DNA of 27,331 nt, from positions 1 to 27,331 of IMG/VR virus record IMGVR_UViG_3300005805_000377; one strand, written 5' to 3'. This document shows positions 620-27,331 of the stretch, in pieces; position 1 is the first letter of the stretch; each line of letters starts with the position of its first letter. Position numbers and translations under genes: made by a program. The notes beneath the pieces are model-generated. The model ran no database searches. It worked only from the letters and a program-made list of their open reading frames with translations, and was not told the origin of the DNA. Origin of the DNA: a virus. Taxonomy: Duplodnaviria; Caudoviricetes.

Positions 620-1197
620 TGGCCAAGCTACCTGATGCTAACGAACCGTTACGGCTACCAGATGGGACAGTTGTTGTCCCATCGGTAGCTTCTACGTTTA
701 CACGTGTGGCTGTTCCATCGAATAGCCAAGCACAGCGGTTAGTGTCTAACACGCATCGTAAGTTAGCTGAGCTACCTGCACTGCCTAAGCAGTTGAATAG
801 CTATGCAGCTATCCTTGTCTACACAGCTAGTGGACTCTCTGATGCAGAGATCAGTGTAGCTACTAAGTTCACTGTAGAGCAGATTACTCTGCTCCGTGCA
901 CAGCCTGCATACTCGCAGTTAGAACAGTTCATCATTGAGACTGTGAAGCAGGAAGCTGCTACAGAGGTAAAGAGTATTCTACTCAATGGTGAGGTAAAGG
1001 CTGCTACACGTGTAGTCGAACTCATCGACAGTGAAGATGACAAGGTAGCATTAGCTGCTAGCAAAGACTTACTAGATCGTGGCGGACACAAGGCGGCAGA
1101 GAAGCTCGATATCCGTGCTGACATGCTCAATACATTCCGCATTGAGGTAGTGGACAAACGAGGCAATGTGCCTACTATTGATATGGAGACGTGCTAA
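619..1197 (+). CDS. Putative terminase small subunit (HTH-containing)
   Basis: 192 aa with an HTH-like segment (GLSDAEISVATKFTVEQI) and a C-terminal 'VALAASKDLLDRGG' motif typical of TerS-like proteins. Lies upstream of TerL, with AAGGA before the TAATG start. Confidence 0.6.
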   Translation: MAKLPDANEPLRLPDGTVVVPSVASTFTRVAVPSNSQAQRLVSNTHRKLAELPALPKQLNSYAAILVYTASGLSDAEISVATKFTVEQITLLRAQPAYSQLEQFIIETVKQEAATEVKSILLNGEVKAATRVVELIDSEDDKVALAASKDLLDRGGHKAAEKLDIRADMLNTFRIEVVDKRGNVPTIDMETC

Positions 1198-3443
1198 TGG
1201 CTACTGTCATTGACCTCGCATGGGGTGGTTCTGTTCCAGGGAATATGTCTATCCGACCGATTGATCCATCGTTGACGGATAACTTCCTTACTAGCGGTGC
1301 AGAATACTATGAACCGAAGCGTGACTTCAATGCTATCGGTGATGGTAGCACTGATGACAGTGTAGCAGTTAACCTCTGCATTGCAGCAGCATTGGCTGCG
1401 GGTCATCGTAAGATGGAGATTGCAGAGGAATACTACGTACCGACTATGAGCAAGGAAGCTGCTGATCTCATCTTCGTTGGTGATGGATCACTTGTTAGCT
1501 CTCCTGTACTCAAGCCTATCATCCCCAAGGATGCGTCACCGCCTCGTCCTCCATTGACTACATTCCGTGCTTCGCAGCATTGTCCTATGGGATCAATCGC
1601 AGCCGCACGTGGTGAAGTTACCATTGTACTAATGGGAGACTCTGTTTCCACACCGCAGGTTAATGGTGTATCGTTCATCGGTAATTTCCATGGTAAGCTG
1701 CGTGAAGCATTCGAGCGTGACAATCCTGGTGTAACCATTAACTGGTACAACCGTGGCATCGGTGGGATGAACTGGGACACGCTCCCAGATAACCACTTCG
1801 GTACTGTTGTGCAGCAGTGGTATGACGTTAATCAGCCATGGCTTGATTACGTCGAAGACTTAGCTCCTGATGTAGTCATTGTTAGCTGCGCACGCAATGG
1901 TGGCGTCAGCTTCCAGATGAAGCACATCCGTGATGCACTTGCTATTATGCAAGGGTGGGCGAAAGTGCCGGATATCATCATGACGAATAGCATTGGTGAG
2001 ACACAGACAGAGGCTACTACTTCAACAGTGCTCACTGCGGCGGAGACGCGCCAACGCTACATGTATGCTGCTGAGGGCATCCGCTCTTACGCATTAGCTA
2101 ATGGCTATGGACTCATTGACACTGAGACACAGTTCAGTCAACTGAACCTCGGCTTTGCACAAGAGAACCTTCCACTGCTCCGTGATGGTTCTATCATCGG
2201 TGAAGCTAATACTGGTAACTATGATGTAGTCATGCCATGGACAGCATCTGTGCCTGTCTACGGCTGGGGCGGCGCATTCCGTGTTGGTCTTGGTGACTGG
2301 ACTACCATGGGTAATGAGTTCTCATTCCAGATCGGCGGTGCGAAGTCTGATGAAGCCAAAGGTTGTCGCTTCTGGCTGAAGCGTGATGGCGGTACGTTTG
2401 AGATTTCATATCGTATTACAGTAAGCCGCACCGCTGAGGGTGGGTCTGAGGACTACACATTCGTAAATTGGACTGCTACAGGCGTTACATGCACTGAGTC
2501 ACAGTTCTTCTCCTTCACCTTCCATCAGCAAGGTTCACGTGTCTATCTAGGATACCTCACTCCTGGCAGCAGCCCTGCTACTCCTGTGAACATTGCGAAC
2601 AATGCGTACGCTATGTTCCATGGCTACGTACCGCGTTGTGGTGGGGAGTACACTCCTACGATTACATGCACCGCTGGTGCTGCATCTAACGTACTGACGT
2701 GGACAGGTGCCACGGATGAATACGCATCACTGACGCAGATGCTGCATCCTCGTGCATTGAATATGCCTGAACTCACAGACCGTGAGTTTGCATCACCTGA
2801 CATTGTTCCACTGCTCCCATGGGGAGGCGGTGGTCCGCACCAAGGCACACTTGCTGCTGAGCTAATCATCGAGCGTGCTATTCAGCTTAATGACTTCAGC
2901 TTTGCCACAGCAGACGCTGCACCATTAGGCATTCGTTCATCCTTCACTTCGTACTACACATCACCTGTGATCCTTCTGTCTGCTACGACTGCTGCAATGA
3001 TTGCTAATATATTGTATGCGCAGCCTATCAGACTGCCTAACTCCACCATTGATCGCATTGGGATCAATGTCACTACAGGTGCTGCTGGTGCCTGTCGTCT
3101 AGGCATTTATAGTAACAAAGACAACGGCACTAATGCTGGTATGCCAGATCAACTACTCGTTGACTGTGGCACAGTCGATACGACTAGCATCGCATTTGTA
3201 GAAGCTAGCTTCACCGCATTGAAGCTGTCTAGCCGTTTCGTCTGGCTAGTCGCAGTGTTTAATGCTACTCCGACTTGTACCATTGGTACAGGTGCTAACA
3301 CCGCACTACTCGGTGCATCTAGCGTCACTGGTGCGTCACGTGGACTACTTGGCACCTTCACATACGGAGCATTGCCTACTACGTCACCGACTATCACAGG
3401 CTTCGCAGCGCAGCCTCCTGTCATGTACGTTCGTAAGAGCTAA
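1197..3443 (+). CDS. Tailspike/virion-associated SGNH (GDSL) hydrolase-domain protein
   Basis: N-terminal 'FNAIGDGSTDDSVAV' motif seen at the start of tailspike domains. SGNH block I 'VLMGDSVS' and block II 'NRGIGG'. Beta-rich middle and C-terminal regions. Start placed at ATG 1197 (TAATG overlap, GGAG upstream) rather than GTG 1191. Confidence 0.65.
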   Translation: MATVIDLAWGGSVPGNMSIRPIDPSLTDNFLTSGAEYYEPKRDFNAIGDGSTDDSVAVNLCIAAALAAGHRKMEIAEEYYVPTMSKEAADLIFVGDGSLVSSPVLKPIIPKDASPPRPPLTTFRASQHCPMGSIAAARGEVTIVLMGDSVSTPQVNGVSFIGNFHGKLREAFERDNPGVTINWYNRGIGGMNWDTLPDNHFGTVVQQWYDVNQPWLDYVEDLAPDVVIVSCARNGGVSFQMKHIRDALAIMQGWAKVPDIIMTNSIGETQTEATTSTVLTAAETRQRYMYAAEGIRSYALANGYGLIDTETQFSQLNLGFAQENLPLLRDGSIIGEANTGNYDVVMPWTASVPVYGWGGAFRVGLGDWTTMGNEFSFQIGGAKSDEAKGCRFWLKRDGGTFEISYRITVSRTAEGGSEDYTFVNWTATGVTCTESQFFSFTFHQQGSRVYLGYLTPGSSPATPVNIANNAYAMFHGYVPRCGGEYTPTITCTAGAASNVLTWTGATDEYASLTQMLHPRALNMPELTDREFASPDIVPLLPWGGGGPHQGTLAAELIIERAIQLNDFSFATADAAPLGIRSSFTSYYTSPVILLSATTAAMIANILYAQPIRLPNSTIDRIGINVTTGAAGACRLGIYSNKDNGTNAGMPDQLLVDCGTVDTTSIAFVEASFTALKLSSRFVWLVAVFNATPTCTIGTGANTALLGASSVTGASRGLLGTFTYGALPTTSPTITGFAAQPPVMYVRKS

Positions 3444-5002
3444 TGGCTGGTACGTATAAGTTAATCTCTGGTAGTGCGGCTGAGGCATTCCACCTCAGTC
3501 GTAAGAAGATACGTCTCTACGGTGGTGGTTTTGCTAATGGCAAGACCACTGCCTTAGTAGCTGATGCACTGCGCATCGCACGGGATTACCCTGGTGCATC
3601 TATGATGCTCGGTCGTGCATCTTATCCTAAGTTAAACAGCACGCTACGTAGAGAGTTCTTCAAGTGGTGCCCTAGCTCATGGATCAAGTCCTTTAACAAA
3701 CAGGATAACACCTGCGTACTACGCAATGATACAATCATTGACTTCAGGTACATTGAACAACGTGGTGGCGCAGACGGAGAGTCTACTAGCAACTTGCTAT
3801 CGGCCAACTACGACTATGTAGGCATAGATCAGATCGAAGACCCTGAGATTACAGAGCATGACTTTGAGCAGTTACTAGGTCGTCTACGTGGTAACGCAGC
3901 ATACGCTGGTGACGATGATACCATGCCGTTGACTGGTCCACGGTACATGTCATTAACATGTAATCCCACCCTCGGTTGGGTGTACAAACGTCTAGTGAAG
4001 CCATTGCATGACTTACGTGCAGGACGGTTCAATCCTGATCTGATCTGTGAAGTAGACAATGATGGTAGACCTGTTCTAGTGAACGGTCAGCCTATTCCAC
4101 TAGTGGAAGTCTTTGAGGCATCCACGTATGAGAATGCGCAGAACCTCGAAGCAGATTACATTAAGACGCTAGAAGCAACATACCGCGGTAAGATGCGTGA
4201 CCGTTACCTACTAGGTAAGTGGGTAGCATTCGATGGTGTCGTCTATGACGAGTTCGATGAAGCTGTGCATGTCATTGCACATGATACACTCGTACGACAC
4301 ATCGCTGATCTACGTCAGGAAGGTTATCGTTTAACAATCATTGAAGGCTACGACTTAGGCATCACTGCTCCGTCATGTTACTTACTTGCGTTAGTAGATG
4401 CACTTGGCATTACCTACGTTGTAGGTGGGTTCTATGAACGTGACATGGGCATTGGTGCGCAGGCTGATGCAATCAACACACTCCGTGCGGAGTTAGCTGG
4501 TCCTGAGCTTATCGTCCGTGACACTGAGCCAGAAGTGTTAGCTGATCCAGCTATCTTCCGTCGTACCAACGCAGGACAGGTTACAGGACAGACTACAGCT
4601 GCAATGTTTGTAGACAATGGCATTCGTATGCGTAGAGGCAACAATGCCATTCTCAATGGCATCATTAAGGTGAAGCAACACTTACACATCCGTGAGACTG
4701 TACTCAATCCATTCACACATGGCTACGGTTGTCCATCACTGTTTGTCAGTGATAAGCTCACATGGTTCCATGATGAGATGTCTACATGGCGATGGAAGCG
4801 TGGTAAGGATGACACTGCTATCGACATGCCAGTGGACATGAACAACCATGCCATGGATGCTTTAAAGTATATGTTGACTGACACGCCACAGCCGGGTACA
4901 TTAATAACGACTACTAGAAGGCCACTGCCTCCTAAGCTCCGCATGTGGAATGAGATGGAAGCAGCTACTGTAGATAACAGATCACATAGGTACATGCGAT
5001 GA
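3443..5002 (+). CDS. terL: Terminase large subunit
   Basis: Walker A 'YGGGFANGKT', Walker B-like 'YVGIDQIE', coupling motif 'LTCNP', RNase H-like nuclease motifs 'GYDLG' and 'NNHAMDALKY'. Confidence 0.93.
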   Translation: MAGTYKLISGSAAEAFHLSRKKIRLYGGGFANGKTTALVADALRIARDYPGASMMLGRASYPKLNSTLRREFFKWCPSSWIKSFNKQDNTCVLRNDTIIDFRYIEQRGGADGESTSNLLSANYDYVGIDQIEDPEITEHDFEQLLGRLRGNAAYAGDDDTMPLTGPRYMSLTCNPTLGWVYKRLVKPLHDLRAGRFNPDLICEVDNDGRPVLVNGQPIPLVEVFEASTYENAQNLEADYIKTLEATYRGKMRDRYLLGKWVAFDGVVYDEFDEAVHVIAHDTLVRHIADLRQEGYRLTIIEGYDLGITAPSCYLLALVDALGITYVVGGFYERDMGIGAQADAINTLRAELAGPELIVRDTEPEVLADPAIFRRTNAGQVTGQTTAAMFVDNGIRMRRGNNAILNGIIKVKQHLHIRETVLNPFTHGYGCPSLFVSDKLTWFHDEMSTWRWKRGKDDTAIDMPVDMNNHAMDALKYMLTDTPQPGTLITTTRRPLPPKLRMWNEMEAATVDNRSHRYMR

Positions 5003-16440: not shown

Positions 16441-17334
16441 ATGGCTAACGCATCTTCACTGAATACACTATACAGTTTAATCAATGGACCTAATGCCGAT
16501 CGCATCGGTGGGTTCATTTACAATGCACAAGTAGACGACGCTGCTAGACAGCGTGAGGCCACACGTCAGGCTGATGCGAGCATCGCATTAGGCAACAAGC
16601 AAGCTGAATACAGCTTAGCTAGTGCGCTGTCGCGCTCACCTGAGACGGCTGCCATGTTCCAGCCAGGGCGAGAAGTGTTAGCTCCTGATATGCAGGATAT
16701 GGCATATAGTCTGGCACAGAATGTGCCGGGTATGCAGACCGCAGAACTTGCGGGTAAGAAAGCTGACACTACATACAAACTAGCCGCTGCGGGTAATATG
16801 CAACGGTTAGCATCTGGTGGAGGCGGAGGTACTGCTGCGCCTAAAGTTGTTGCAGATGCTACTGATAAAGATCAGGCGCGTATTGTTGCACAATACAGCA
16901 CAGCTATGAATAGTCTTACAACTAGACAGGCTGACTTAGAGAAGTTCGCTGCTAAGCAGTTAACTGAAATTGATGCACAATTAGCAACCAGCCCTTCCGC
17001 TAAAGCTGCGGCTAAAGCCACTGTTCAACGTAATCTGTCTCAACAGATCGCTGGACTTAATGAAGAACGTAATCGTACTACGCAACTGTTTACTCCATTG
17101 ATTAAGAAAGGTGTGCCATCGCCTGCAGGCAGTGCGCCAACTGGCGAGGGTCTCGTGCCGCCTACGGCCGCGCCACAGGCTAGTACAACTGCCGCACCGC
17201 AACCATCTGCTGAACGTGATCTACGCTTATCACAGCTTAAGGCAGCCTTACCTAAGGCTACTCCTGAGCAGCGTACCAAGATGCTTGGCATGGCAGCACA
17301 GTATGGTATTACACCAGAGGATTTAGCTAAGTGA
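16441..17334 (+). CDS. Putative internal virion protein
   Basis: 297 aa, Ala/Gln-rich coiled coil, located within the ejection gene cluster. Confidence 0.55.
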   Translation: MANASSLNTLYSLINGPNADRIGGFIYNAQVDDAARQREATRQADASIALGNKQAEYSLASALSRSPETAAMFQPGREVLAPDMQDMAYSLAQNVPGMQTAELAGKKADTTYKLAAAGNMQRLASGGGGGTAAPKVVADATDKDQARIVAQYSTAMNSLTTRQADLEKFAAKQLTEIDAQLATSPSAKAAAKATVQRNLSQQIAGLNEERNRTTQLFTPLIKKGVPSPAGSAPTGEGLVPPTAAPQASTTAAPQPSAERDLRLSQLKAALPKATPEQRTKMLGMAAQYGITPEDLAK

Positions 17335-20300
17335 GCGATAATCCATTCGAGAACATTCTCAATGAGAATGACGATCCCTTCGCAGCATTGCTGACTGATG
17401 CAGTTAAGCCTAAGAAAGGTTTAGCTGCATTAGGTGTTCCATTGTATGCACGTGATGCAGTGCGTAGTGTCGCATCTGTGCCGTCTGATGTAGCACGCCT
17501 AGTCGGTATGACTGGTGCAGAGACAATCGGTGATTGGGGTAATCGTACTAACGAATGGATCAATGAGAATATTTCACCCGAAGCACGCTTCGATCAGGAA
17601 CCTGGACGTGCTGCGATCCAGTTAGGCGCACAGGCGCTTATTCCTGTTCCAGGATTAGGCTTGGCTACTGCTGGCGCAAGGATGGCTCCTGGCGCAGCTA
17701 AGGGTGTAGTGCAAGGTCTTGCACGTGGTACAGAGCTAGTCCTCCCTGGGACCGCACCGTTTAGTAAAGGCAATGTAGCATTGAATGCTGCAACTGCTGT
17801 TGGCTTAGGTGCGGGCACAGAGGAACTTGTAGATCAAGCGTATCCGCAACAGGTACCTGTACCGCAGCCTGATCGTGCTGCCGCACCAGAGATTGATGCG
17901 CCACCACGCGTGACTGTGCCTAATGTACAAGGACAAGCTGCTGCTGTGGATGATCCGTTCGCATCACTACTTGATGTAGCCCCAGAGGGTAATCCATATG
18001 CACGGTTTATTGTGGATCAACTACCCTGGGCATTACTTCTCGGTGGAGGCGCAGCAATCACTGCTGCGGCTCGTGGTGGTATGCGTCGTGGTACGGCTGC
18101 TGATGTGGCTAATACGCAAGGTATGACACAGCCTGGGACACCGAATACGATTACATCATCTAATACGATGGGTGAAGGATTAGAAGCGGGTATTTTTAAT
18201 AACTTAGAAACACTTACTAATCGTCTCAACGATGCTGTGAAGGTGGGTAACATCCCACGTGAAGCTGCTGATGCACAGATCAATGCTAACTACATTAACC
18301 TACGTGAAGCAGTGAACAATGACCGCATGTCAGAGTTCATGAACACTGGTATCTTAGATAACACACATCGTGTGGATATCAGTCCTCGGACGATGTTCAA
18401 TGAAGCAGCATTGCTTACACCTGAGCAGCGTACGAAGTGGTCTGATCTAATGGCAGCTGCTGATGAACATGATGTTCGTCAGGAGAACATCGTACGCGGT
18501 AAGATGAGTAACACAGGTGAACCTGATCGTGTAGCACTCGGTGATAAATCATACGCAGAGTTGAAACAACTCATTGCTGACGGACGTGCTGATCCTACGA
18601 TCGCAGCGTTAGAGCAAGCGTACCGTGCTATCAATAACAAAGTGTTAGACTTCGCTGCTGCTCGTGGCACGTTCAGTGTTGATGAAATTGCTGCCATGCG
18701 AGCTAAAGGTCCTAACTATATGCACCGTGTAGTTAAGGATATGACTATCCAACGTAACAACGGTGCAGGTATGCCACTGTCTACAGGTGTAGAGGGTAAC
18801 TCTCCACTCAATGCACGTAGTCGTGCAGAGGACGCAGGTCCATTGCGTATGCAAGACCCTGCATTAGCGATGGAAGACGGCATCCGTCAGACACTAGACT
18901 TCATTCATCGTAATGAAGCAATCAGAGACTTTGCCAAGTCTACAGCTAGTAATATGCTAGACCCTGCTACTGGCACATACGTACCGCGTGGCAATGACAT
19001 TCGCGGTGTAGGACGCATCCTACCTGCATCAGCTAGAGCAGCTGATGGCTACGTAGGCATTAAATTCAATGACGGTGCATCGAAGCTGCAAGTAGAGTTA
19101 GACCAAGGACTCGCTGCTGCGGCTATGCCGTATCCTCGTACAACTGTGCCCATCTTTAATGGGCTACGTATTCTAGAGCAAAACGCTACTACTGGTCTAG
19201 TAGGTGCGTTACTTGGCAACGTACAAGCCTTCGTTAGCACACTGACTAGCGCAGCTACCGCAATGGTAACGGCTCCATCGAAGCTGCGAGCAGGCTACAT
19301 TGATGCTGCTATCCGTAAGATGACAGGTGGCACTGTTAACATTCGTCAGTTAGGTATCACTGATCCTACGTTTGCACTGCAACTAGTTGACTCTGTGATC
19401 CGTGATCTAGGCGCACATACTGCTGCGTCGCTAGCTGACACGTTATCACGTTCTGTGAACAAGAATGGCTACGTAGCCAGGATGCTTGGACCGCAGCGGG
19501 CACAAGACATTGCTACAGCAATGACACGTGCTTATGAAAACTCATGGACGCATTACATGCGTCGTGAGGGATTGCTCAGCCAAGGCATTGCATATGCTGC
19601 TGACAGTCGTCCTACACATACTAACATTGCTAACATGTCAGCAGAATACGCGCAGAGTATGCCGTACGGAGGCAATGCTGCGTCTATCTTCGATGTACGT
19701 AGTAAAGCGCAATTCGATGAATGGATGGCTAAGACTAGCAACCGTGCTATTTCGCCGTCACTGCGTAGGGCATGGCACTTCTATAGCAGAGCATTAGACT
19801 TAATCTCTAACTCTCCGCAGAGTGCACTATTCCGTGCTAACATTAACCACATGGCGGGTAAGGAGAAGGAACTTGTTGGACTAGCACGCACAGTGGTTGG
19901 TGATGCAGCACAGTACGGTGGGTACAAGGGTGTACAAGCTGCTACGTCCATGCTGACGTATCAGAACATTGCTATGCAAGCAGCGCATCAAGTGTTCAAG
20001 TCAGCACAACGTGAGCCGTTGGCCACTGCCGCACGCATGGGCACACTTGGATCAATGTTATCATTGATTATGCTGCATTCAGCTATATCCTCTGATGAGG
20101 AAGCACTGGCTGAAGGTCGTCCTGCTAACTCTGTAGCACACATGGTTACACGTGATGCTAATGACGCCGCACGGTCATTCCGTTTCTACACTGGTAGTGA
20201 GAATCCAGAGGACTCTATCCGCATCCCCATCGACGGTGCGTTGTCACCATTCTTCTCTGCTATCCTAGCAGGACTGACTGAAGCATTCGATGTAACTAAT

Positions 20301-21224
20301 CCAGAGTTCTACACTGACCGCTACGCACCACTGCGTAATAGCATTGAGACATTGCTAGACGACGGTACGTGGTCACGTATCCGTGCTGGCATTGGTGTTG
20401 CCGGTGTAGACATGTCTACGCCATCACTGATCCGTGGAGCAGGACAGCTATTTGCTGGTGCAGATATGCGTAACGCATTGAGCCTAGCATCAGGACCACG
20501 TATCAATGATACACGGGATGCTCCTGGCTATACGCAGTCGTCCTTGAACAAGGACCCTGTTAACAAGTACGCTGCTACGATACTAGAGACAATGGTTGGC
20601 CTAGGTGGTCAGACACTACTAGAGCTAATGCGTACCTACGGATACTCGTATGAGATCAAAGGTAACGCAGGAGCCATGTCTGCTGTAGCAGAGCAGTATG
20701 GGCTAACTGCTACTAGCAGCGGCTCATCCCGTATCCTATTCGGTGGTAACCGTCGTCTACGTGTCAATGACATGGTAGGTGATGAAGTACGTAAGAGTGA
20801 GGAAAAGCTGCAAGCTATTGGTAAAGACTTTAGCAACATTGCAGGTGAAGGTACCATTGGTAACATGAGCACTGCTCGTCCTAGTCCGTACGGTGCAGGT
20901 AAGGAAGGTGTCCCACCTGATATGATTGAACCGCTTGCAGCGTTCAAGGACTTGTACAATAAGCTATCACCACTGCGTGATATGCGTAAGATGCAGAGTG
21001 ATGAAATGCGTGATGCAATGTCCAGTCCGCAGCTACGTAGTAATCCTACGCAACTGCGGAAGGTACAGAATGAACATGCAATGAACATTCGTAGCATCAA
21101 TGCAGGCATCTATCATCACATAGATGCAATGGAGAAGCAGTTACAAGCACGGACTGGAAGGGCCGTGAGATTACAGGACCTAGACCCGTTGAAGGGACTA
21201 GATCAGTTCGCTGTGTTGGAGTGA
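17331..21224 (+). CDS. Large putative internal virion (ejection) protein
   Basis: 1297 aa, last gene of the virion arm. N-terminal NPF/DPF repeats (DNPFENIL, DDPFAALL, DDPFASLL) and Ala-rich helical composition. GTG start overlaps the previous stop. Confidence 0.65.
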   Translation: MSDNPFENILNENDDPFAALLTDAVKPKKGLAALGVPLYARDAVRSVASVPSDVARLVGMTGAETIGDWGNRTNEWINENISPEARFDQEPGRAAIQLGAQALIPVPGLGLATAGARMAPGAAKGVVQGLARGTELVLPGTAPFSKGNVALNAATAVGLGAGTEELVDQAYPQQVPVPQPDRAAAPEIDAPPRVTVPNVQGQAAAVDDPFASLLDVAPEGNPYARFIVDQLPWALLLGGGAAITAAARGGMRRGTAADVANTQGMTQPGTPNTITSSNTMGEGLEAGIFNNLETLTNRLNDAVKVGNIPREAADAQINANYINLREAVNNDRMSEFMNTGILDNTHRVDISPRTMFNEAALLTPEQRTKWSDLMAAADEHDVRQENIVRGKMSNTGEPDRVALGDKSYAELKQLIADGRADPTIAALEQAYRAINNKVLDFAAARGTFSVDEIAAMRAKGPNYMHRVVKDMTIQRNNGAGMPLSTGVEGNSPLNARSRAEDAGPLRMQDPALAMEDGIRQTLDFIHRNEAIRDFAKSTASNMLDPATGTYVPRGNDIRGVGRILPASARAADGYVGIKFNDGASKLQVELDQGLAAAAMPYPRTTVPIFNGLRILEQNATTGLVGALLGNVQAFVSTLTSAATAMVTAPSKLRAGYIDAAIRKMTGGTVNIRQLGITDPTFALQLVDSVIRDLGAHTAASLADTLSRSVNKNGYVARMLGPQRAQDIATAMTRAYENSWTHYMRREGLLSQGIAYAADSRPTHTNIANMSAEYAQSMPYGGNAASIFDVRSKAQFDEWMAKTSNRAISPSLRRAWHFYSRALDLISNSPQSALFRANINHMAGKEKELVGLARTVVGDAAQYGGYKGVQAATSMLTYQNIAMQAAHQVFKSAQREPLATAARMGTLGSMLSLIMLHSAISSDEEALAEGRPANSVAHMVTRDANDAARSFRFYTGSENPEDSIRIPIDGALSPFFSAILAGLTEAFDVTNPEFYTDRYAPLRNSIETLLDDGTWSRIRAGIGVAGVDMSTPSLIRGAGQLFAGADMRNALSLASGPRINDTRDAPGYTQSSLNKDPVNKYAATILETMVGLGGQTLLELMRTYGYSYEIKGNAGAMSAVAEQYGLTATSSGSSRILFGGNRRLRVNDMVGDEVRKSEEKLQAIGKDFSNIAGEGTIGNMSTARPSPYGAGKEGVPPDMIEPLAAFKDLYNKLSPLRDMRKMQSDEMRDAMSSPQLRSNPTQLRKVQNEHAMNIRSINAGIYHHIDAMEKQLQARTGRAVRLQDLDPLKGLDQFAVLE

Positions 21225-21445: not shown

Positions 21446-21768
21446 ACTTCATCCCTTCCCATCATAGCGAACCATCGCCGATGGTTTGCCTTCTTACGTT
21501 CAACACGTTCAGTAATCGCATCAGCATTGAGTCCGAAGTGTTCGATTGCTAATTCAGACAACACACGCACATCAGCTAGTTCCTCTTGCAGCCAGAGTCG
21601 GTTGACTTTACCTGTAACAGGTTCTACTTCATCCAATCCTTGAATAAATGCTCGTGCGGTTGCTGAAGTAGCTTCACCAAGTTCCTCTAACAACTTACCT
21701 ACGAGCTTCTTATCCACAGGATTTGTCATGAGTACCCATGGCGATACAGTATCACTCATACTTCATCC
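21440..21768. repeat. 15-bp direct repeat flanking the MazG-like gene
   Basis: ACTCATACTTCATCC at 21440-21454 and 21754-21768. On the minus strand this is GGATGAAGTATGAGT, containing the start codon of the following gene in each case. Confidence 0.85.
21442..21759 (-). CDS. MazG-like NTP pyrophosphohydrolase domain protein
   Basis: 'KLLEELGEA...LQEELADV' carries the paired EExxE / EExxD acidic motifs of the MazG/all-alpha NTP-PPase fold. Confidence 0.7.
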   Translation of the reverse strand: MSDTVSPWVLMTNPVDKKLVGKLLEELGEATSATARAFIQGLDEVEPVTGKVNRLWLQEELADVRVLSELAIEHFGLNADAITERVERKKANHRRWFAMMGRDEV

Positions 21769-23002
21769 TCTCTAACACAGTCTGTTGTAGTGATCTCACT
21801 AATAACTTATTCGTACCACGCCATATGGTCTTAGCACGACCATGTGTCTTCACCTCGAACCGAGATACCATCTCTAGCTCATTCATGATAGTCAATGCGT
21901 ACTCTAACTCACGTGAGCGTAGTGCATTGCGTACCTTGTAGCTAATCTCATTCTGGCTTAGTCCTGCCGCACCGGCGTTCGCCAGTAACAGGCGGAGTCT
22001 ATCGACGCCATTGACCAATTTGTGCGAGTCTCTATCCGCTCCGAATAGATCAGTGGCACCGTCCTTGTGGTGCTTGATGATCCGCACAGCGTGTCTGATG
22101 TGGAACACATCAATGATAAATGATCTATCGTTAACTGCAAGCAGCCCTGCGAGTCGTAATATGTGATGGTCCTCTCTCGCTTCAAATGAAGTGGTGAATG
22201 GATCATGTGTATCTGGCTTACGTCCTTCGTACCATCGTACGAACTCTGCTTTAGCGTTATCTGTAAGGGTGATACCTCTGTTACTGTATCTGCGCACATC
22301 CTCTTGTATCCTATGCAATGAGTTAACGCAAGTGCTAACGTAATCAGCACCTGCTGATGGATCAGGCCATGCTACTACACGTTTACGCTTTTCTTCAATG
22401 ATGAACAAGCACCGTGAAGTGAACCCTCCTTCGATTACATCAGGATTGATAGCACGTACTAGCCAGCTAGGAGTACTAGCTGCTAGGAAGGATACAAAGA
22501 TATCACGGATAGCCATATTCTCACTGCTGACACGCTTTACATCACGTATGTCAGGACAGTCATACAAGTCTGTCAACAGTCCTGGCATACCCATGGTATA
22601 GTGTTCCTTACCAAGGAATGTAACTAACTCACTGACAATAATGTTAGCATTAGCAGGTAAGTCTGTGGCTGTTCGCACTAACAGTTCTGCTGTCAACGCC
22701 TCTGGACTACATGAGCCAGTAATGATAGCAGCCTGATTATCCAATCCTGCCTTACGGTACACTGCTTCGCATCTACGGATAGCACTACTCTTACGAGTAG
22801 TACCTGCATCAGCGCAGAGGATGGCATAGACATTCATGAACACAGGTGCATGTGGACGCTCTACACGCATGTTACGTGCTACAGCAGAGCTAAGCAGCCA
22901 TAGGCCGCACCAGAAGTCATAGGCTACTGGTGTTTCCAGTGGGTCCATGTAGGACAGATACTGTGCAAGGAATGTGTCATCCTTGACTGCCTCTCGGAAC
23001 AT
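21752..23002 (-). CDS. DUF3987/YfjI-like P-loop ATPase, probable replicative helicase-type protein
   Basis: 'NVYAILCADAGTTRKSSAI' (Walker A-like), 'SPEAL', 'IIVSEL', 'LLTDLYD' and 'GGFTSRCLFI'. Possible C-terminal winged helix. Confidence 0.7.
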   Translation of the reverse strand: MFREAVKDDTFLAQYLSYMDPLETPVAYDFWCGLWLLSSAVARNMRVERPHAPVFMNVYAILCADAGTTRKSSAIRRCEAVYRKAGLDNQAAIITGSCSPEALTAELLVRTATDLPANANIIVSELVTFLGKEHYTMGMPGLLTDLYDCPDIRDVKRVSSENMAIRDIFVSFLAASTPSWLVRAINPDVIEGGFTSRCLFIIEEKRKRVVAWPDPSAGADYVSTCVNSLHRIQEDVRRYSNRGITLTDNAKAEFVRWYEGRKPDTHDPFTTSFEAREDHHILRLAGLLAVNDRSFIIDVFHIRHAVRIIKHHKDGATDLFGADRDSHKLVNGVDRLRLLLANAGAAGLSQNEISYKVRNALRSRELEYALTIMNELEMVSRFEVKTHGRAKTIWRGTNKLLVRSLQQTVLERMKYE

Positions 23003-23519
23003 GCAATGGTTCCTTTACTTTAACGCTGTGTCGATATCTTGCACCACCATGTGTTCCTTTTCTATACTGTGGGAATGGGTGTGACTCTATGTACTGTACC
23101 CACGGCTGCAATGCTGTGAGTAGATAATCCGGTGGACTGGTCCATCCATTCCACCATCCACGCACAGCGTGTGGTGAGCATTGACAATGATATGCTATTT
23201 GCGAAGGTGTTAACTTAACTACATCCATGTAGTGATGTAGCAATGCACCTAGCGCAGCTACTTCTTCACGAATGACTGCACCCTGCCTGTGTCTATGTGG
23301 CACATGCGGTAACGGATGTTCAGCAATGAATGCTGCGAAGTCTGCAACAGCTTGTGCTACATCTAATGGAGCATAGACTTCTGCATAGAACCACTCTCGT
23401 GGTCCTGTATAGCTAGGATCACCTAGCAGTGTAGCTAACTGCTTAGGCTTCCATGTAATATAACGCATGTTAGCTACGAAGTCATCGACTACATCTTCAA
23501 CTTCTTTAAGTTGCTCCAT
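22977..23519 (-). CDS. Hypothetical protein with XRE-like HTH; start uncertain
   Basis: 'LTPSQIAYHCQCSPHAVRGWWNGWTSPP' is an HTH-like segment. The ORF fills the gap between the polymerase and ATPase genes. Confidence 0.55.
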   Translation of the reverse strand: MEQLKEVEDVVDDFVANMRYITWKPKQLATLLGDPSYTGPREWFYAEVYAPLDVAQAVADFAAFIAEHPLPHVPHRHRQGAVIREEVAALGALLHHYMDVVKLTPSQIAYHCQCSPHAVRGWWNGWTSPPDYLLTALQPWVQYIESHPFPQYRKGTHGGARYRHSVKVKEPLHVPRGSQG

Positions 23520-24286
23520 CGGTGCATACCTTGTTCATCTGCGAATGACTCCTTGAAGTCGGCAGGGATGATTAACTGCTCACCTTTGATTATCAATGGT
23601 GCTTCAGCGTACTTACGCAGTAGTCTAGCTACTAGTTGTACATCCTTCTCACGACACATTGCAGTCAATGAGTCATGATTGTTGAATGGTACTCTAGCAT
23701 AGAGTGGCCACTCGTCATCCTCCTGCACTTTCCACTGTACACCGCATACGAAGTCACCAAGTGTAGACTGTGGCTTGAATGCAATGATGCTATCAATGAG
23801 AGACTCATCTATCCTTGATCCGAGGAACTCCATTCGTCTACCGAGACATGTATAGAGTACTCTAGTTGCTTGTACTTCATTGATAATGTCATTCCACCAG
23901 CGTCGGAGTTCAGGAGTTGTACGATGATATAAATCAAAGGCGATGTTAGCTTCTGTAAGCGACATACCAGTGACTCCGGCAAGCCTTGCAGACTGCATCC
24001 GGTAATTAAGTCCATGACGGCACCTCTTGCTAATGCCGCGTAGCGTGAGCTTTCCGTCCGCTTCATAATCATACGTTGGTACGTCACCATAGGATATGTT
24101 GAACATTTCAGACGCAAGCGCAATATGTGCATCGTACGATCCTGGGTTAAGTCTTGCATTCTCAAACTGCTCCTTCCACTTAGCTATGTTAGCTTCATAT
24201 GCCACGATACGTGCCTCTGCCTGCGCACCATCGAAGTATACGAAGTGTAGCTGTTCTTCACGGACACGTTGAATGTGTGCCATCAT
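23489..24286 (-). CDS. polA: Family A DNA polymerase, C-terminal part (motifs A, B, C)
   Basis: Motif A 'YFDGAQAEAR', motif B 'RGISKRCRHGLNYRM', 'TCLGRR', 'PQSTLGD' and motif C 'NNHDSL'. Confidence 0.9.
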   Translation of the reverse strand: MMAHIQRVREEQLHFVYFDGAQAEARIVAYEANIAKWKEQFENARLNPGSYDAHIALASEMFNISYGDVPTYDYEADGKLTLRGISKRCRHGLNYRMQSARLAGVTGMSLTEANIAFDLYHRTTPELRRWWNDIINEVQATRVLYTCLGRRMEFLGSRIDESLIDSIIAFKPQSTLGDFVCGVQWKVQEDDEWPLYARVPFNNHDSLTAMCREKDVQLVARLLRKYAEAPLIIKGEQLIIPADFKESFADEQGMHRWSNLKKLKM

Positions 24287-24504
24287 TACTCGCTGCGACG
24301 AATGTTACTGATATCCTTTAGAGCATATGTCCGTGTTACTTCACGGTCAATATTATATGCTTCTAGCAGCCATTGTGGTTCAGGATGATACTCATTGCTG
24401 CCGAAGTATAACTGTTCAGTTAGGACACGACACTCTGACACTTCTCCACGATAGTTCTTATACGTGAAGGTTAGATACTCACCATCTGTGATGCGCAGCA
24501 ACAT
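24286..24504 (-). CDS. Stand-alone WYL-domain protein inside the split polymerase locus
   Basis: 72 aa 'LTFTYKNYRGEVSECRV...LYFGSNEYHPEPQWLLEAYNIDREVTRTYALKDI' matches the WYL SH3-like pattern. GAGGG SD and TAATG overlaps at both ends. Confidence 0.8.
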   Translation of the reverse strand: MLLRITDGEYLTFTYKNYRGEVSECRVLTEQLYFGSNEYHPEPQWLLEAYNIDREVTRTYALKDISNIRRSE

Positions 24505-24533
24505 TACATGCCCTCATGTTGAATGTGTGCCAT
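24504..24533 (-). other. 9-codon mini-ORF MAHIQHEGM (Pol-C start joined to Pol-N end)
   Basis: ATG GCA CAC ATT CAA CAT GAG GGC ATG TAA, preceded by AAGGA. Its stop overlaps the WYL start codon. Confidence 0.6.
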
Positions 24534-24726
24534 TGTATTCCTTCAACGCAGCAACAACTGCTTTAGCAGCTTCTGATGGATCAAAGCGTTTTGACATAGC
24601 ATAGAGGATCGAATGTGATTGTCCAAAGATAGGACTAAGATATTGTCCCCAAGCATTGGGTTGAGAGTAGATCGTGTCTACGTAATGTTTAGCAAAGTCT
24701 TGTACTGACCACGCACTGATATTCAT
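24514..24726 (-). CDS. Hypothetical 70-aa protein inside the split polymerase locus
   Basis: MNISAWSVQD...EYNGTHST. The ATG at 24726 has GGAGGG 8 nt upstream, so it is preferred over the track start at 24774. Confidence 0.7.
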   Translation of the reverse strand: MNISAWSVQDFAKHYVDTIYSQPNAWGQYLSPIFGQSHSILYAMSKRFDPSEAAKAVVAALKEYNGTHST

Positions 24727-24727
24727 G

Positions 24728-26413
24728 TTACATACCCTCCGGTATCTTAATCTTCGGTGCAATGAACATGCCACGCAACCGCTCAGGTTGGTTCTGTAAG
24801 TTCATACCACTACCCCATAGTGTCTGACTAGATGATAGCCGTCCAGGCACGAACTGTGTGCCGTACTGCTTGTAGTCACTGCGCATACGTCCGTCAGGAT
24901 CGACAGCAGCAGTGATGTATGTGCTATACAGCTTATGCTGTTCCTTGAACTCATTAAGTAGCACTAGCATACGCCGTGCATCCTCAGGTGTACGAGGGTT
25001 CTCAATCATTGTATTACGGTTAGCTTCATCAGTCGATGTAGTCTTACCGATAAGCCGTAGCTTCTGGAACAGCAGTAAGCCTAGCTGCTTAGGCGAGAGA
25101 GGGTTAACATCCAACTCTGGATCGTTAGCAGCAATGCGTGCAGCAGCTTTGAACTCAGCCGCTAGACGGTCTACTTCTAATCCATAGTCATGGTTAAGCT
25201 GCTCACGCATACGTAGGTCTACGTCATTACCTAACACTGTAGCAGTGATAAGGTGCGGCTGTAGTCGCATAACATGGCCATGGAAGAAGTCCCACATCTG
25301 TTGCTGACGTAGCTCAGCCTCTAGCTTACGTGCTACCTCCCAGGTGATGCAACAGTCTTTGACGTTGTACATCCAGAAGGTGGAGATATCTCCGCCTTCA
25401 CGCCATTCATGTATGTCATCCTTGTAGTATGGATGCGAAGTGTACTGCGCGGTGAGAAATGCAAGATTATGTGGCCACGTTGGGTGGAGTGTGTGATGAG
25501 CAAGTAGTGTATCGAGCCATAACGCTTTCGATCGTATCCGATCCTTATACCATAACCATCCACAGTCAAATCCACCATTTTGTGCAACGATCCGCGTTGA
25601 TGCGTGACGGAGTACCCGTTGAATACCTCGTCGAACTTCACGTTCTTCAGAAAGCGACCAACGATTGTCAGTACGTGATCTGAAGTTAATGCACATTCCA
25701 ATGTGAGCATCATTGGCCAAGCCTATACATGCAGTTTCACCAGCAGTAGTCTCAATGTCTAATGCAATAGGCTTGCCTTCCTGTATCATACGATCACACC
25801 ACTGTATCGCCTCCTTCGGTGAAGGATCGTACAAGTGTTCGATCTGATACTCAGACCATTGCCCACGCATGACTGCATCTAACTTAGATACATCTAGGTA
25901 GAAGATGGGTTCTAAGTTAGGCTTACGCATTAGCAATGCAGGATTGTATGAGATAACGTACGTACGCTTACCGTCATTGACTACAGAGCCACGCCACTTC
26001 TCAATGCCAGTGTCACCGACTAGTGCTTCGAGTGCTAGGCCACCGAGGACTAACACATACTTAACATTAGGTAACTGTGATAGTTCCCAATCTAGCAGTG
26101 CTTTCCAATGACTAAGCTCATTCTTCGATAGACCCTCCTTACCCTTCACTCCATCGACTAACTGCTTCTTCACTACATTGGTAATGTAGCAATGCTGTCT
26201 GCGTAAGTTAAACTGTGCTAGCACTTTCCACAGAAACTGTCCACTCCCCCCTACGAGGGGGAGCTTAAGCTGCGTCTCACGCGGCCCTGGTGCCTCGGAT
26301 ACAATGACAACTTCACTATTGAAGTTGCCATCACCGAGGCAGTCATAGGACAGTCCTGCTGCTGTAGCACGTTCTACGAACTTACGGTTCAGCTCTCCTG
26401 TGCTTCCAACCAT
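24728..26413 (-). CDS. polA: Family A DNA polymerase, N-terminal part: UDG-like domain, 3'-5' exonuclease and thumb region
   Basis: Family-4 UDG-like motifs 'IVSEAPGPRE...PLVGGSG', 'YITNVVK' and 'SYNPA'. ExoI 'LDIET', ExoII 'QNGGFD', ExoIII 'YNVKD'. Polymerase motifs 'PGRLSS' and 'NLQNQP'. Ends FIAPKIKIPEGM-stop, before motif A. Confidence 0.9.
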   Translation of the reverse strand: MVGSTGELNRKFVERATAAGLSYDCLGDGNFNSEVVIVSEAPGPRETQLKLPLVGGSGQFLWKVLAQFNLRRQHCYITNVVKKQLVDGVKGKEGLSKNELSHWKALLDWELSQLPNVKYVLVLGGLALEALVGDTGIEKWRGSVVNDGKRTYVISYNPALLMRKPNLEPIFYLDVSKLDAVMRGQWSEYQIEHLYDPSPKEAIQWCDRMIQEGKPIALDIETTAGETACIGLANDAHIGMCINFRSRTDNRWSLSEEREVRRGIQRVLRHASTRIVAQNGGFDCGWLWYKDRIRSKALWLDTLLAHHTLHPTWPHNLAFLTAQYTSHPYYKDDIHEWREGGDISTFWMYNVKDCCITWEVARKLEAELRQQQMWDFFHGHVMRLQPHLITATVLGNDVDLRMREQLNHDYGLEVDRLAAEFKAAARIAANDPELDVNPLSPKQLGLLLFQKLRLIGKTTSTDEANRNTMIENPRTPEDARRMLVLLNEFKEQHKLYSTYITAAVDPDGRMRSDYKQYGTQFVPGRLSSSQTLWGSGMNLQNQPERLRGMFIAPKIKIPEGM

Positions 26414-26964
26414 AGGTTAACTGCCGCCTTGACATTGTATTCGTAGTCACGAATGGAGCCGCTGTTTACCAGCTTGATAGTCTTCACACCAGGGAGTGTG
26501 ATGTAGCTACGACTATCCTTTGTGAAGTCACAGCCGTCACGGTATACTTGTACAATGAGCATGTTCTGCGGACCAACTAGGTCTAACAGTGGGATAGCTT
26601 CCTCAATGAAGCCGCAGTCACTACAGATGTGTAGCTTTGATAGTGCATTCTCAATGCGTCTACGTGCTAGGCGACCGAATACGTCACGACCGAACTTAGG
26701 CTTAGCACATTCTTCACTGAACCATATCTGTAGTTCACGGAATGTGTTATCAAACAGTAGCGGTAACTTGTTATCTTTGTGCTGCTCAATGACTTTAGCA
26801 TCTGTGCTATTCAGTGTGAAGAACGCTGATACCATATCCTTCAATGGCTGCGACATACGGAACCAATGAATGAATGGGTTAGCACTGTAGATGAAGGATG
26901 CAGCAGTGTCCTTACCACTACGTGGTGGACCATTGAATAGGATGATACGCTTTTGCATACTCAT
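26389..26964 (-). CDS. Deoxynucleoside monophosphate kinase-like protein
   Basis: P-loop 'NGPPRSGKDTAA', plus 'SQPLK', 'FRELQI' and 'SDCGFIEE', matching T4 gp1-type dNMP kinase patterns. Confidence 0.8.
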   Translation of the reverse strand: MSMQKRIILFNGPPRSGKDTAASFIYSANPFIHWFRMSQPLKDMVSAFFTLNSTDAKVIEQHKDNKLPLLFDNTFRELQIWFSEECAKPKFGRDVFGRLARRRIENALSKLHICSDCGFIEEAIPLLDLVGPQNMLIVQVYRDGCDFTKDSRSYITLPGVKTIKLVNSGSIRDYEYNVKAAVNLWLEAQES

Positions 26965-27331
26965 TTACTAAACACCTTCGGTTCTTTAGTTGTTACACTC
27001 ATGCTCAATGACGCCATGTCAGTAATCAATGTAGCATGTTTCCTTGCTCGTGTCAAGGCTGTATACATGTTCTTACGGTTCATCATCGCAAGCATTGACT
27101 TGTTCAATACATATACGATGTGATCGTACTCACTGCCTTGTGCTTTATGCGTAGTCACTACGTAGGCTAGGTAGATATCACGTTGTGGATAACCAACGGT
27201 AACCTTGTTATTATACACTAGCTGAACAGCAGGAGGGATACGACAGATACGATCATCGAAGTCTACGACTACTTCCTCTACGTCACTGACTTCGATTACC
27301 TTACCCACTTCACCATTGAACACGCCCTTAC
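26961..27331 (-). CDS. RecD/Dda-like SF1B helicase, C-terminal fragment (start lies beyond the window)
   Basis: 'GVFNGEVG', motif V 'AYVVTTHKAQGSEY' and motif VI 'YTALTRAR'. The frame is open to the window edge. Confidence 0.9.
   Translation of the reverse strand, partial: KGVFNGEVGKVIEVSDVEEVVVDFDDRICRIPPAVQLVYNNKVTVGYPQRDIYLAYVVTTHKAQGSEYDHIVYVLNKSMLAMMNRKNMYTALTRARKHATLITDMASLSMSVTTKEPKVFSK

Follow-up and report, generated by a model that had tools for sequence, protein, structure and literature searches.

Can a family A DNA polymerase (PolA) whose gene is cut inside the polymerase domain still work, and is such an enzyme made as one chain or as two? The question is raised by IMG/VR record IMGVR_UViG_3300005805_000377, a 27,331-base phage contig (the whole stretch analysed here, called the window; 61% complete), in which virion genes lie on the plus strand and a replication operon, in the order RecD-like helicase, nucleotide kinase, polymerase and primase-family gene, lies on the minus strand. 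The polymerase, which carries a uracil-DNA glycosylase (UDG)-like domain, is encoded in two genes, polN and polC, with two small genes between them. A first-pass annotation had read the locus either as a two-subunit PolA whose junction takes up genes or as an enzyme rejoined by a non-canonical mechanism. We found that the former fits every test run: the UDG-PolA is encoded by two genes cut a few residues before the motif A aspartate, very probably translated separately, with chains predicted to assemble non-covalently into a working polymerase. The data show that the gene is cut, that the split is inherited, that both halves are under selection and that the gap varies freely.

A cut in the turn before motif A

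The split locus consists of the following parts.

24728..26413, minus strand: polN, 561 amino acids (aa), with a family-4 UDG-like domain (Pfam UDG, 27-166), a 3'-5' exonuclease (Pfam DNA_pol_A_exo1, 209-368), the thumb and the first palm strands (Pfam DNA_pol_A model positions 25-149)
24728..24757, minus strand: new 9-residue C-terminal tail of polN and its stop; one-chain relatives are without it
24514..24726, minus strand: cargo gene 1, open reading frame (ORF) 70, 70 aa, no known family, homologues in the same gap of related loci L001, L003 and L101
24286..24504, minus strand: cargo gene 2, 72 aa, a free-standing WYL-like protein that is frequent in phages unrelated to this one
24251..24286, minus strand: new 11-12-residue N-terminal head of polC, whose EE-x-L end is found again in most split relatives
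23489..24286, minus strand: polC, 265 aa, comprising the fingers and the core of the palm and carrying motifs A, B and C (Pfam DNA_pol_A model 149-355)

polN ends in ...GMFIAPKIKIPEGM* and polC starts with MMAHIQRVREEQLHFVYFD, being 264 aa long if the second ATG at 24283 is used; these ends, and the coordinates of both halves and the gap, agree with those given in the first-pass annotation. The Pfam DNA_pol_A model runs from 25 to 149 in polN and from 149 to 355 in polC, such that the PolA domain is covered without conserved loss. Across the same site the one-chain viral relative L011 reads FIADPKYVYVYFD, which aligns to the Klenow turn FIAPEDYVIVSAD before motif A, and compared with L011 three turn residues have been swapped for the 9-residue polN tail and the 11-12-residue polC head. 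The break therefore lies in the turn just before motif A with almost nothing missing, as had been claimed from the sequence, and alignment of both halves to contiguous UDG-PolA homologues placed it in the same turn, again with no conserved loss. The gap between the halves (24287-24727, 441 nt) is closely packed with the 70-aa and 72-aa ORFs, as described before: ORF70 starts 1 nt past the polN stop, and the 72-aa ORF starts 9 nt past the ORF70 stop and overlaps the first polC ATG by 1 nt with its own stop. As a separate observation on this turn, two one-chain relatives (L049:4964-5001 and protein P0052) carry 7-11 extra residues in it, which indicates that the turn can tolerate insertions.

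We assessed how widespread the cut is among related viral loci, keeping the best 80 of 89 for counts. Twelve of the 80, including three near-duplicate pairs, were split at the same turn and 68 ran through, and pattern searches supplied three further split loci (L092, L100 and L101). The halves of one related locus, L002, are 100% and 99% identical to those of the window. In a protein search limited to 145-464 aa, with DNA context absent for most matches, the top 28 of 89 matches (62-96% identity) each open with a novel head, their first residue lying 8-34 positions ahead of the motif A tyrosine. The split is thus inherited within the lineage. For one protein, P0068, a DNA locus was not found among the viral loci, and its three nearest viral loci are one-chain. 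The three genome-contig matches were metagenome-bin contigs, the two strong ones encoding whole enzymes. A pattern search also supplied a second split lineage, L119, at 44-49% identity. Its PolA is broken in this turn too, with two small Cys-rich genes in the gap (reverse complement 3070-3483), while its near relatives L116-L118 are whole.

All 24 runs listed with this stretch are lake-water metagenomes, with no RNA run among them and nine flagged as possible sources of the window DNA. The whole gap was bridged by one contig in four of the eight lake-water runs examined, with 1-2 letter differences and no joint, though three of the four bridging contigs may be the window's own source. Stronger evidence against misassembly comes from diverged relatives in other samples, which have the same cut at identities down to about 63%. 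The ratio of nonsynonymous to synonymous substitution rates (dN/dS) was 0.023-0.108 in both halves (17 of 26 half-gene comparisons, those not saturated), indicating purifying selection. Catalytic residues were invariant both in polN (D219, E221, D283, Y349 and D353; 53/53 aligned rows) and in polC (D19, R83, K87, Y95, H204 and D205; 54/54 aligned rows), with family A motifs A, B and C and the exonuclease acidic residues intact. In four of four split records at least 95% complete, a level that the window's own record does not reach, the two halves were the sole DNA_pol_A matches. The two doubts that the first-pass annotation had attached to the locus, a misassembly and a decayed half, were not borne out: the bridging contigs showed no joint across the gap, relatives are cut alike and neither half is decayed.

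Gap content and rival explanations

Comparison of gap contents across related contigs revealed unrelated cargo even between near-identical enzymes. The gap of L001 holds only an ORF70 homologue, that of L002 an unrelated 86-aa gene and those of other split loci one to three genes, while L100 has no gap gene, its polN stop and polC start overlapping by 8 nt. The 18 cargo ORFs of 11 loci fell into 10 unlinked groups (BLASTP); L014 may have a third cargo ORF, which is Cys-rich, overlaps the start of polC in another frame (L014:4906-5070) and lies outside the 18. The distance from the polN stop to the motif A tyrosine ranged from 46 nt in L100 to 841 nt (13 loci), and the frame of polC relative to polN was 0 in five of these loci, +1 in three and +2 in five.

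ORF70 is 87% identical to the L001 cargo and 51% identical over 43 aa to the L003 cargo; it had no Pfam or PHROG match, and its Atlas matches, at only 0.85, were at chance level. The earlier naming of the 72-aa ORF as WYL held in part: it matches phrog_3715 (E 4e-19) and occurs in 215 phage records, some annotated WYL, while its Pfam WYL match (E 6e-4, 20.1 bits) falls below the 21.8 cut-off. It was found in none of the five related split-polymerase records searched. The boundary between polC and the primase-family gene is also variable, measuring 1 nt in L011 and about 230-850 nt in other loci; because of this second variable slot, the polN-polC junction need not be a special hotspot for gene insertion, and the gap may simply be a gene boundary like any other.

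Within the gap we observed two leftover repeats that the first-pass annotation had not picked up.

24515..24533, minus strand: stub B, a copy of the first 19 nt of polC, 18/19 identical to 24265-24283, forming the last codons of ORF70
24504..24515, minus strand: stub A, likely a copy of the last 12 nt of polN, 11/12 identical; its stop and the beginning of the WYL-like gene overlap

A match as good as stub B (16 nt exact or 19 nt with one mismatch) was obtained in 0/500 shuffles. Stub A directly follows stub B. The ORF70 homologue of L001 continues into the genuine start of polC, and the cargo gene of L002 is joined to the genuine end of polN through an identical 1-nt overlap. The window gap is thus likely two one-gene alleles, ORF70 and WYL, stacked by unequal crossover: recombination between the polC start of one phage and the polN end of another would have left stubs B and A. 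As read from the sequence, deletion between either stub pair would not restore a single frame.

An alternative that keeps the two-chain enzyme is that the cargo is moved by a dedicated mobile mechanism, through homing or site-specific recombination at the stubs. The stubs flank cargo in the window, both cargo genes of L119 begin with a shared direct repeat, about 36 nt long, which holds a ribosome-binding site and the first codons, and cargo groups are reshuffled among L006, L008, L010 and L014. However, no endonuclease, intein or recombinase family was detected in the 16 gap proteins scanned (four cargo ORFs of L092 and L119 lay outside the scan), the repeats duplicate gene edges and are not the same from one lineage to another, and the polC-primase boundary, too, is variable. 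Nor was a cargo-excision joint seen in the eight lake-water runs, which were viewed as contigs that can drop rare forms. We regard a dedicated mobile mechanism as improbable.

Rejoining of the two halves, the other branch of the first-pass annotation, is disfavoured, with gap sequence, length and frame varying freely and L100 having no gap gene. One such route would be an unusual intron, removed from RNA to restore a single frame, as was suggested for the split polA of phages MEP401/MEP402 in a paper that also reports introns to be common in phage polA genes (PMC10580990; here and below, papers are cited from the parts of them that were available). Against this, the region 23000-27331 had no credible Rfam match (one at E 2.8), and gap RNA folded no better than shuffled sequence (z −0.63, 25/100 shuffles as good). 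Near-identical enzymes have unrelated gaps, only 46 nt separate the polN stop from motif A in L100, and each half has a coded tail, polN with a stop of its own and polC with a start of its own. A group I or II intron core was therefore rejected, there being no Rfam match, no structured RNA and a gap that is unrelated or absent in relatives. The claim that the gap lacks a homing endonuclease, intein termini and an intron core was upheld by the 16 gap proteins, Pfam and Rfam, and we judge an intron very improbable.

Ribosomes might instead bypass or frameshift across the gap to make one chain, as in T4 gene 60, where matched codons permit a 50-nt hop. In the window polN ends in an ATG codon before its stop and polC starts with ATG in the same frame, and for L100 a +1 shift would be enough. 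However, the matching codons are not conserved (the last residue of polN is Val in L003 and Asp or Glu in others), the gap reaches 841 nt and occurs in all three frames, and no conserved hairpin was seen in the gap RNA, such that matched codons, hairpin and gap length all depart from the T4 gene 60 type. Bypass seems to us scarcely probable.

Fractured phage replication genes joined by split inteins are known (PMC2677866), and a split intein or a protein-splicing remnant could join the halves after translation. Neither half and none of the 16 gap proteins matched an intein or Hint family, and the tails differ between subclades. In the loci read, the tails measure 5-9 residues in polN and about 5-19 in polC, far under the size of an intein fold. 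A fractured gene in the sense of a split intein plus a homing endonuclease was thus rejected, neither intein halves nor a gap endonuclease being found (0/16 gap proteins), and joining at the protein level is hardly credible. That the polymerase is dead or the locus misassembled, with the phage using a host enzyme, has in its favour that three of four bridging contigs may share the window's source, and it is just as hard to credit against dN/dS of 0.02-0.11 in both halves, invariant catalytic residues and the same cut in relatives from other samples.

Predicted assembly and proposed mechanism and history of the split enzyme

The two-chain reading suggests how the locus could have arisen. In the ancestral split state polN and polC would have overlapped by 8 nt, as in L100, with translation of polC coupled to the polN stop. 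From then on the opened cut would have been one more gene boundary within an operon of tightly coupled genes, where small genes entered and took over the coupled start that formerly fed polC, as is suggested by the first cargo gene of seven other loci, which starts at the same 8-nt overlap as polC of L100. The new short tails are predicted to pair with each other, extending the cut hairpin.

Structure prediction gave the co-folded polN and polC a score of 0.88, compared to 0.00 for the best of three controls, with runs agreeing in at least 95% of contacts and partner pLDDT (predicted local distance difference test) of at least 89. The mark was reached by 116/157 solved complexes and 2/215 mismatched pairs, a calibration only roughly valid here, as our own alignments were used. 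The predicted interface lists polN residues 547-559 and 561 and polC residues 6-15, which fall in the new tails, and this listing is a lead that the tails pair.

Several points weigh against the two-chain reading, including the loose calibration of the co-fold. A pass is expected from likeness to solved one-chain PolA, such that the predicted complex would show likeness rather than binding, and separate translation and activity of two chains are what we infer. A +1 frameshift near the overlap of L100 could in principle give some full-length protein. In the window a clear Shine-Dalgarno sequence is absent before polC, so its initiation would rest on the 1-nt stop-start overlap; a search for internal promoters and terminators gave four promoter-like sites for polC against 3.1 expected, and no terminators. 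Stub A is short and was picked after being seen, its 12-nt one-mismatch match arising in 1/500 shuffles and its 6-nt exact match alone being a chance event (427/500), and the predicted WYL-only allele was not found among the loci compared. Finally, the split loci are not a clean clade, as one-chain L011/L012 are nested inside.

Trees were built from 32 N halves and 51 C halves, hand-picked from loci and proteins, with no mixture model and with the split state of the protein (P) rows inferred from their heads. For N and C halves alike, one-chain L011/L012 (L011:4956-5030), whose turn has the ancestral length, clustered with the split locus L013 (100/97 in the N tree, 99 in a quick C tree). A single clean origin of the split with L011 left outside was rejected (approximately unbiased test, p-AU 0.003; the grouping was chosen ahead of this tree, with an earlier quick tree already seen), and a single-origin story therefore needs reversal or recombination. 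The likeliest course is that L011/L012 reverted to the one-chain state, either through a deletion or through recombination with a relative whose gene is whole; two origins of the split within this group are less likely. A single clade of both split lineages was likewise rejected (p-AU 1.6e-128), and the trees indicate that the L119 lineage was cut independently at the same turn.

Taken together, these observations allow a wider reading, which we put forward tentatively and consider rather unlikely to hold as a whole. The turn before motif A would be a reversible joint of family A polymerases, opened at least three times independently (in this lineage, L119 and MEP401) and closed at least once (L011/L012). 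The new tails would form a beta-pair clasp keeping the chains together, unequal crossover at gene-edge stubs would build up a cassette array at the opened joint with no recombinase involved, and the cargo would be part of the chain of coupled translation through which the catalytic subunit is supplied. If true, coupling would shield cargo from careless loss and let it tune polymerase supply.

Other features of the enzyme and its surroundings were also noted. At polN position 157, which we take from known motifs to correspond to the catalytic His of family-4 UDGs, 47/53 aligned rows have Asn and His is not among the three commonest letters, while the other motifs of the UDG-like domain (window 25933-26413) are well conserved; the domain is likely altered or inactive, judging from these residues. 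In motif B, polC His91 (region of 24033) is invariant in 54/54 rows at a position that is presumably Phe or Tyr in most PolA, and it may affect nucleotide choice. The end of a short contig from lake run X13 agrees with L006-type relatives at their polN end (window 24783-24817), and the L006-type and window subclades may share habitat. The neighbouring genes are as follows.

26961 to window edge (27331), minus strand: RecD-like helicase, end only, upstream
26389-26964, minus strand: deoxynucleoside monophosphate kinase, upstream
22977-23519, minus strand: 180-aa ORF, downstream, in the second variable slot
21752-23002, minus strand: primase-family gene, downstream

The 180-aa ORF overlaps the polC end by 31 nt, has a weak helix-turn-helix match (E 0.04) and occurs only in L001-L003 among the 80 loci. 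Two large ORFs lie elsewhere, one of 1297 aa (17331-21224) without a Pfam or PHROG match and one of 750 aa (1191-3443) between the terminase subunit genes, with PHROG matches of unknown function only.

Comparison with known systems

The cut is not new to print. PolA of the cultured OM43 phages MEP401/MEP402 (Zobellviridae) is described as split by a small unknown ORF, with an intron suggested as a possibility that the available text leaves untested, and most group I genomes are said to have a split PolA (PMC10580990). In these phages (OP830906, OP830907) polN ends FLSRYGE and polC starts MILNAD, which places the cut at the same turn. As there, the window has a family A PolA in two genes that have a small unknown gene tightly coupled between them, and it falls in the MEP401 type in that the domain is covered without loss, the cut lies before motif A, both halves are under selection and no second polymerase was found in the four near-complete split records. 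The PolA lineage differs, their N half being 387-389 aa long and not found by tblastn here, and the empty allele, variable cargo, second origin and nested one-chain relative go beyond what MEP401/MEP402 offer. Apart from the OM43 paper, whose tables may hold more on gap content, and outside supplements, we found no paper on the window's lineage or on a cut recurring ahead of motif A. A published split PolA with a possible intron thereby becomes a testable natural series within one phage group, from one-chain through split without insert and split with one to three inserts to likely re-joined. The available text of a 2023 survey of family A polymerases reports only an exonuclease/polymerase split, so a recurrent cut inside the palm appears under-described. 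Surveys using polA as a marker, and annotators, would score such genes as broken or intron-bearing, and the cut marks a natural split site for engineering two-part polymerases.

The cultured Vibrio phage vB_VspS_VS-ABTNL-3 (MF497422; L081:1703-4837) also has a related PolA in two genes, with one 184-aa unknown gene between them. Its cut lies about ten residues earlier, after the NLQN motif, with the FV(P) strand on the C chain, and is likely a separate event. UDG-PolA fusions of the N4-like cluster 17 and SPO1 type (PMC10201439) share the family-4 UDG ahead of exonuclease and polymerase but are described as single chains, and the identity of the window's PolA to cultured phage enzymes is only about 21-29%. 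Gene fission with a predicted non-covalent complex and free termini is likewise known from the S-SBP1-like T7-type split, described alongside the UDG-PolA fusions (PMC10201439), and from LUZ24/phiEco32-type phages, where exonuclease and polymerase are separate genes (PMC3517423). Those cuts are described as falling between the exonuclease and polymerase domains, whereas here the cut is inside the polymerase domain with the thumb on the N chain; an S-SBP1-type split was rejected for the window, polN holding PolA model positions 25-149.

Among other published cases, a two-gene family B-like enzyme has been solved (PMC13648687), a preprint names a split cyanophage polymerase (10.1101/325100) and fractured genes have been defined as a class (PMC2677866). 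The closest functional parallel is the split gp43 of T4-related Aeromonas and Acinetobacter phages, which is active across variable intercistronic DNA of 2 bp to 3 kb (PMC3061061, PMC2988022) and whose gp43A and gp43B co-purify and polymerise (PMC2988022). Activity was shown there, whereas for the window we have the genes, and binding and polymerisation by separate chains are predicted from a complex (0.88 against 0.00) that may reflect likeness to solved PolA. The gp43 enzyme belongs to family B, its cut lies at the tip of the fingers and its gap sometimes contains a homing endonuclease, while the window's is a family A enzyme cut in the palm with none found; both are two-chain replicative phage polymerases, here as read from the genes, with a variable intercistronic stretch between their halves.

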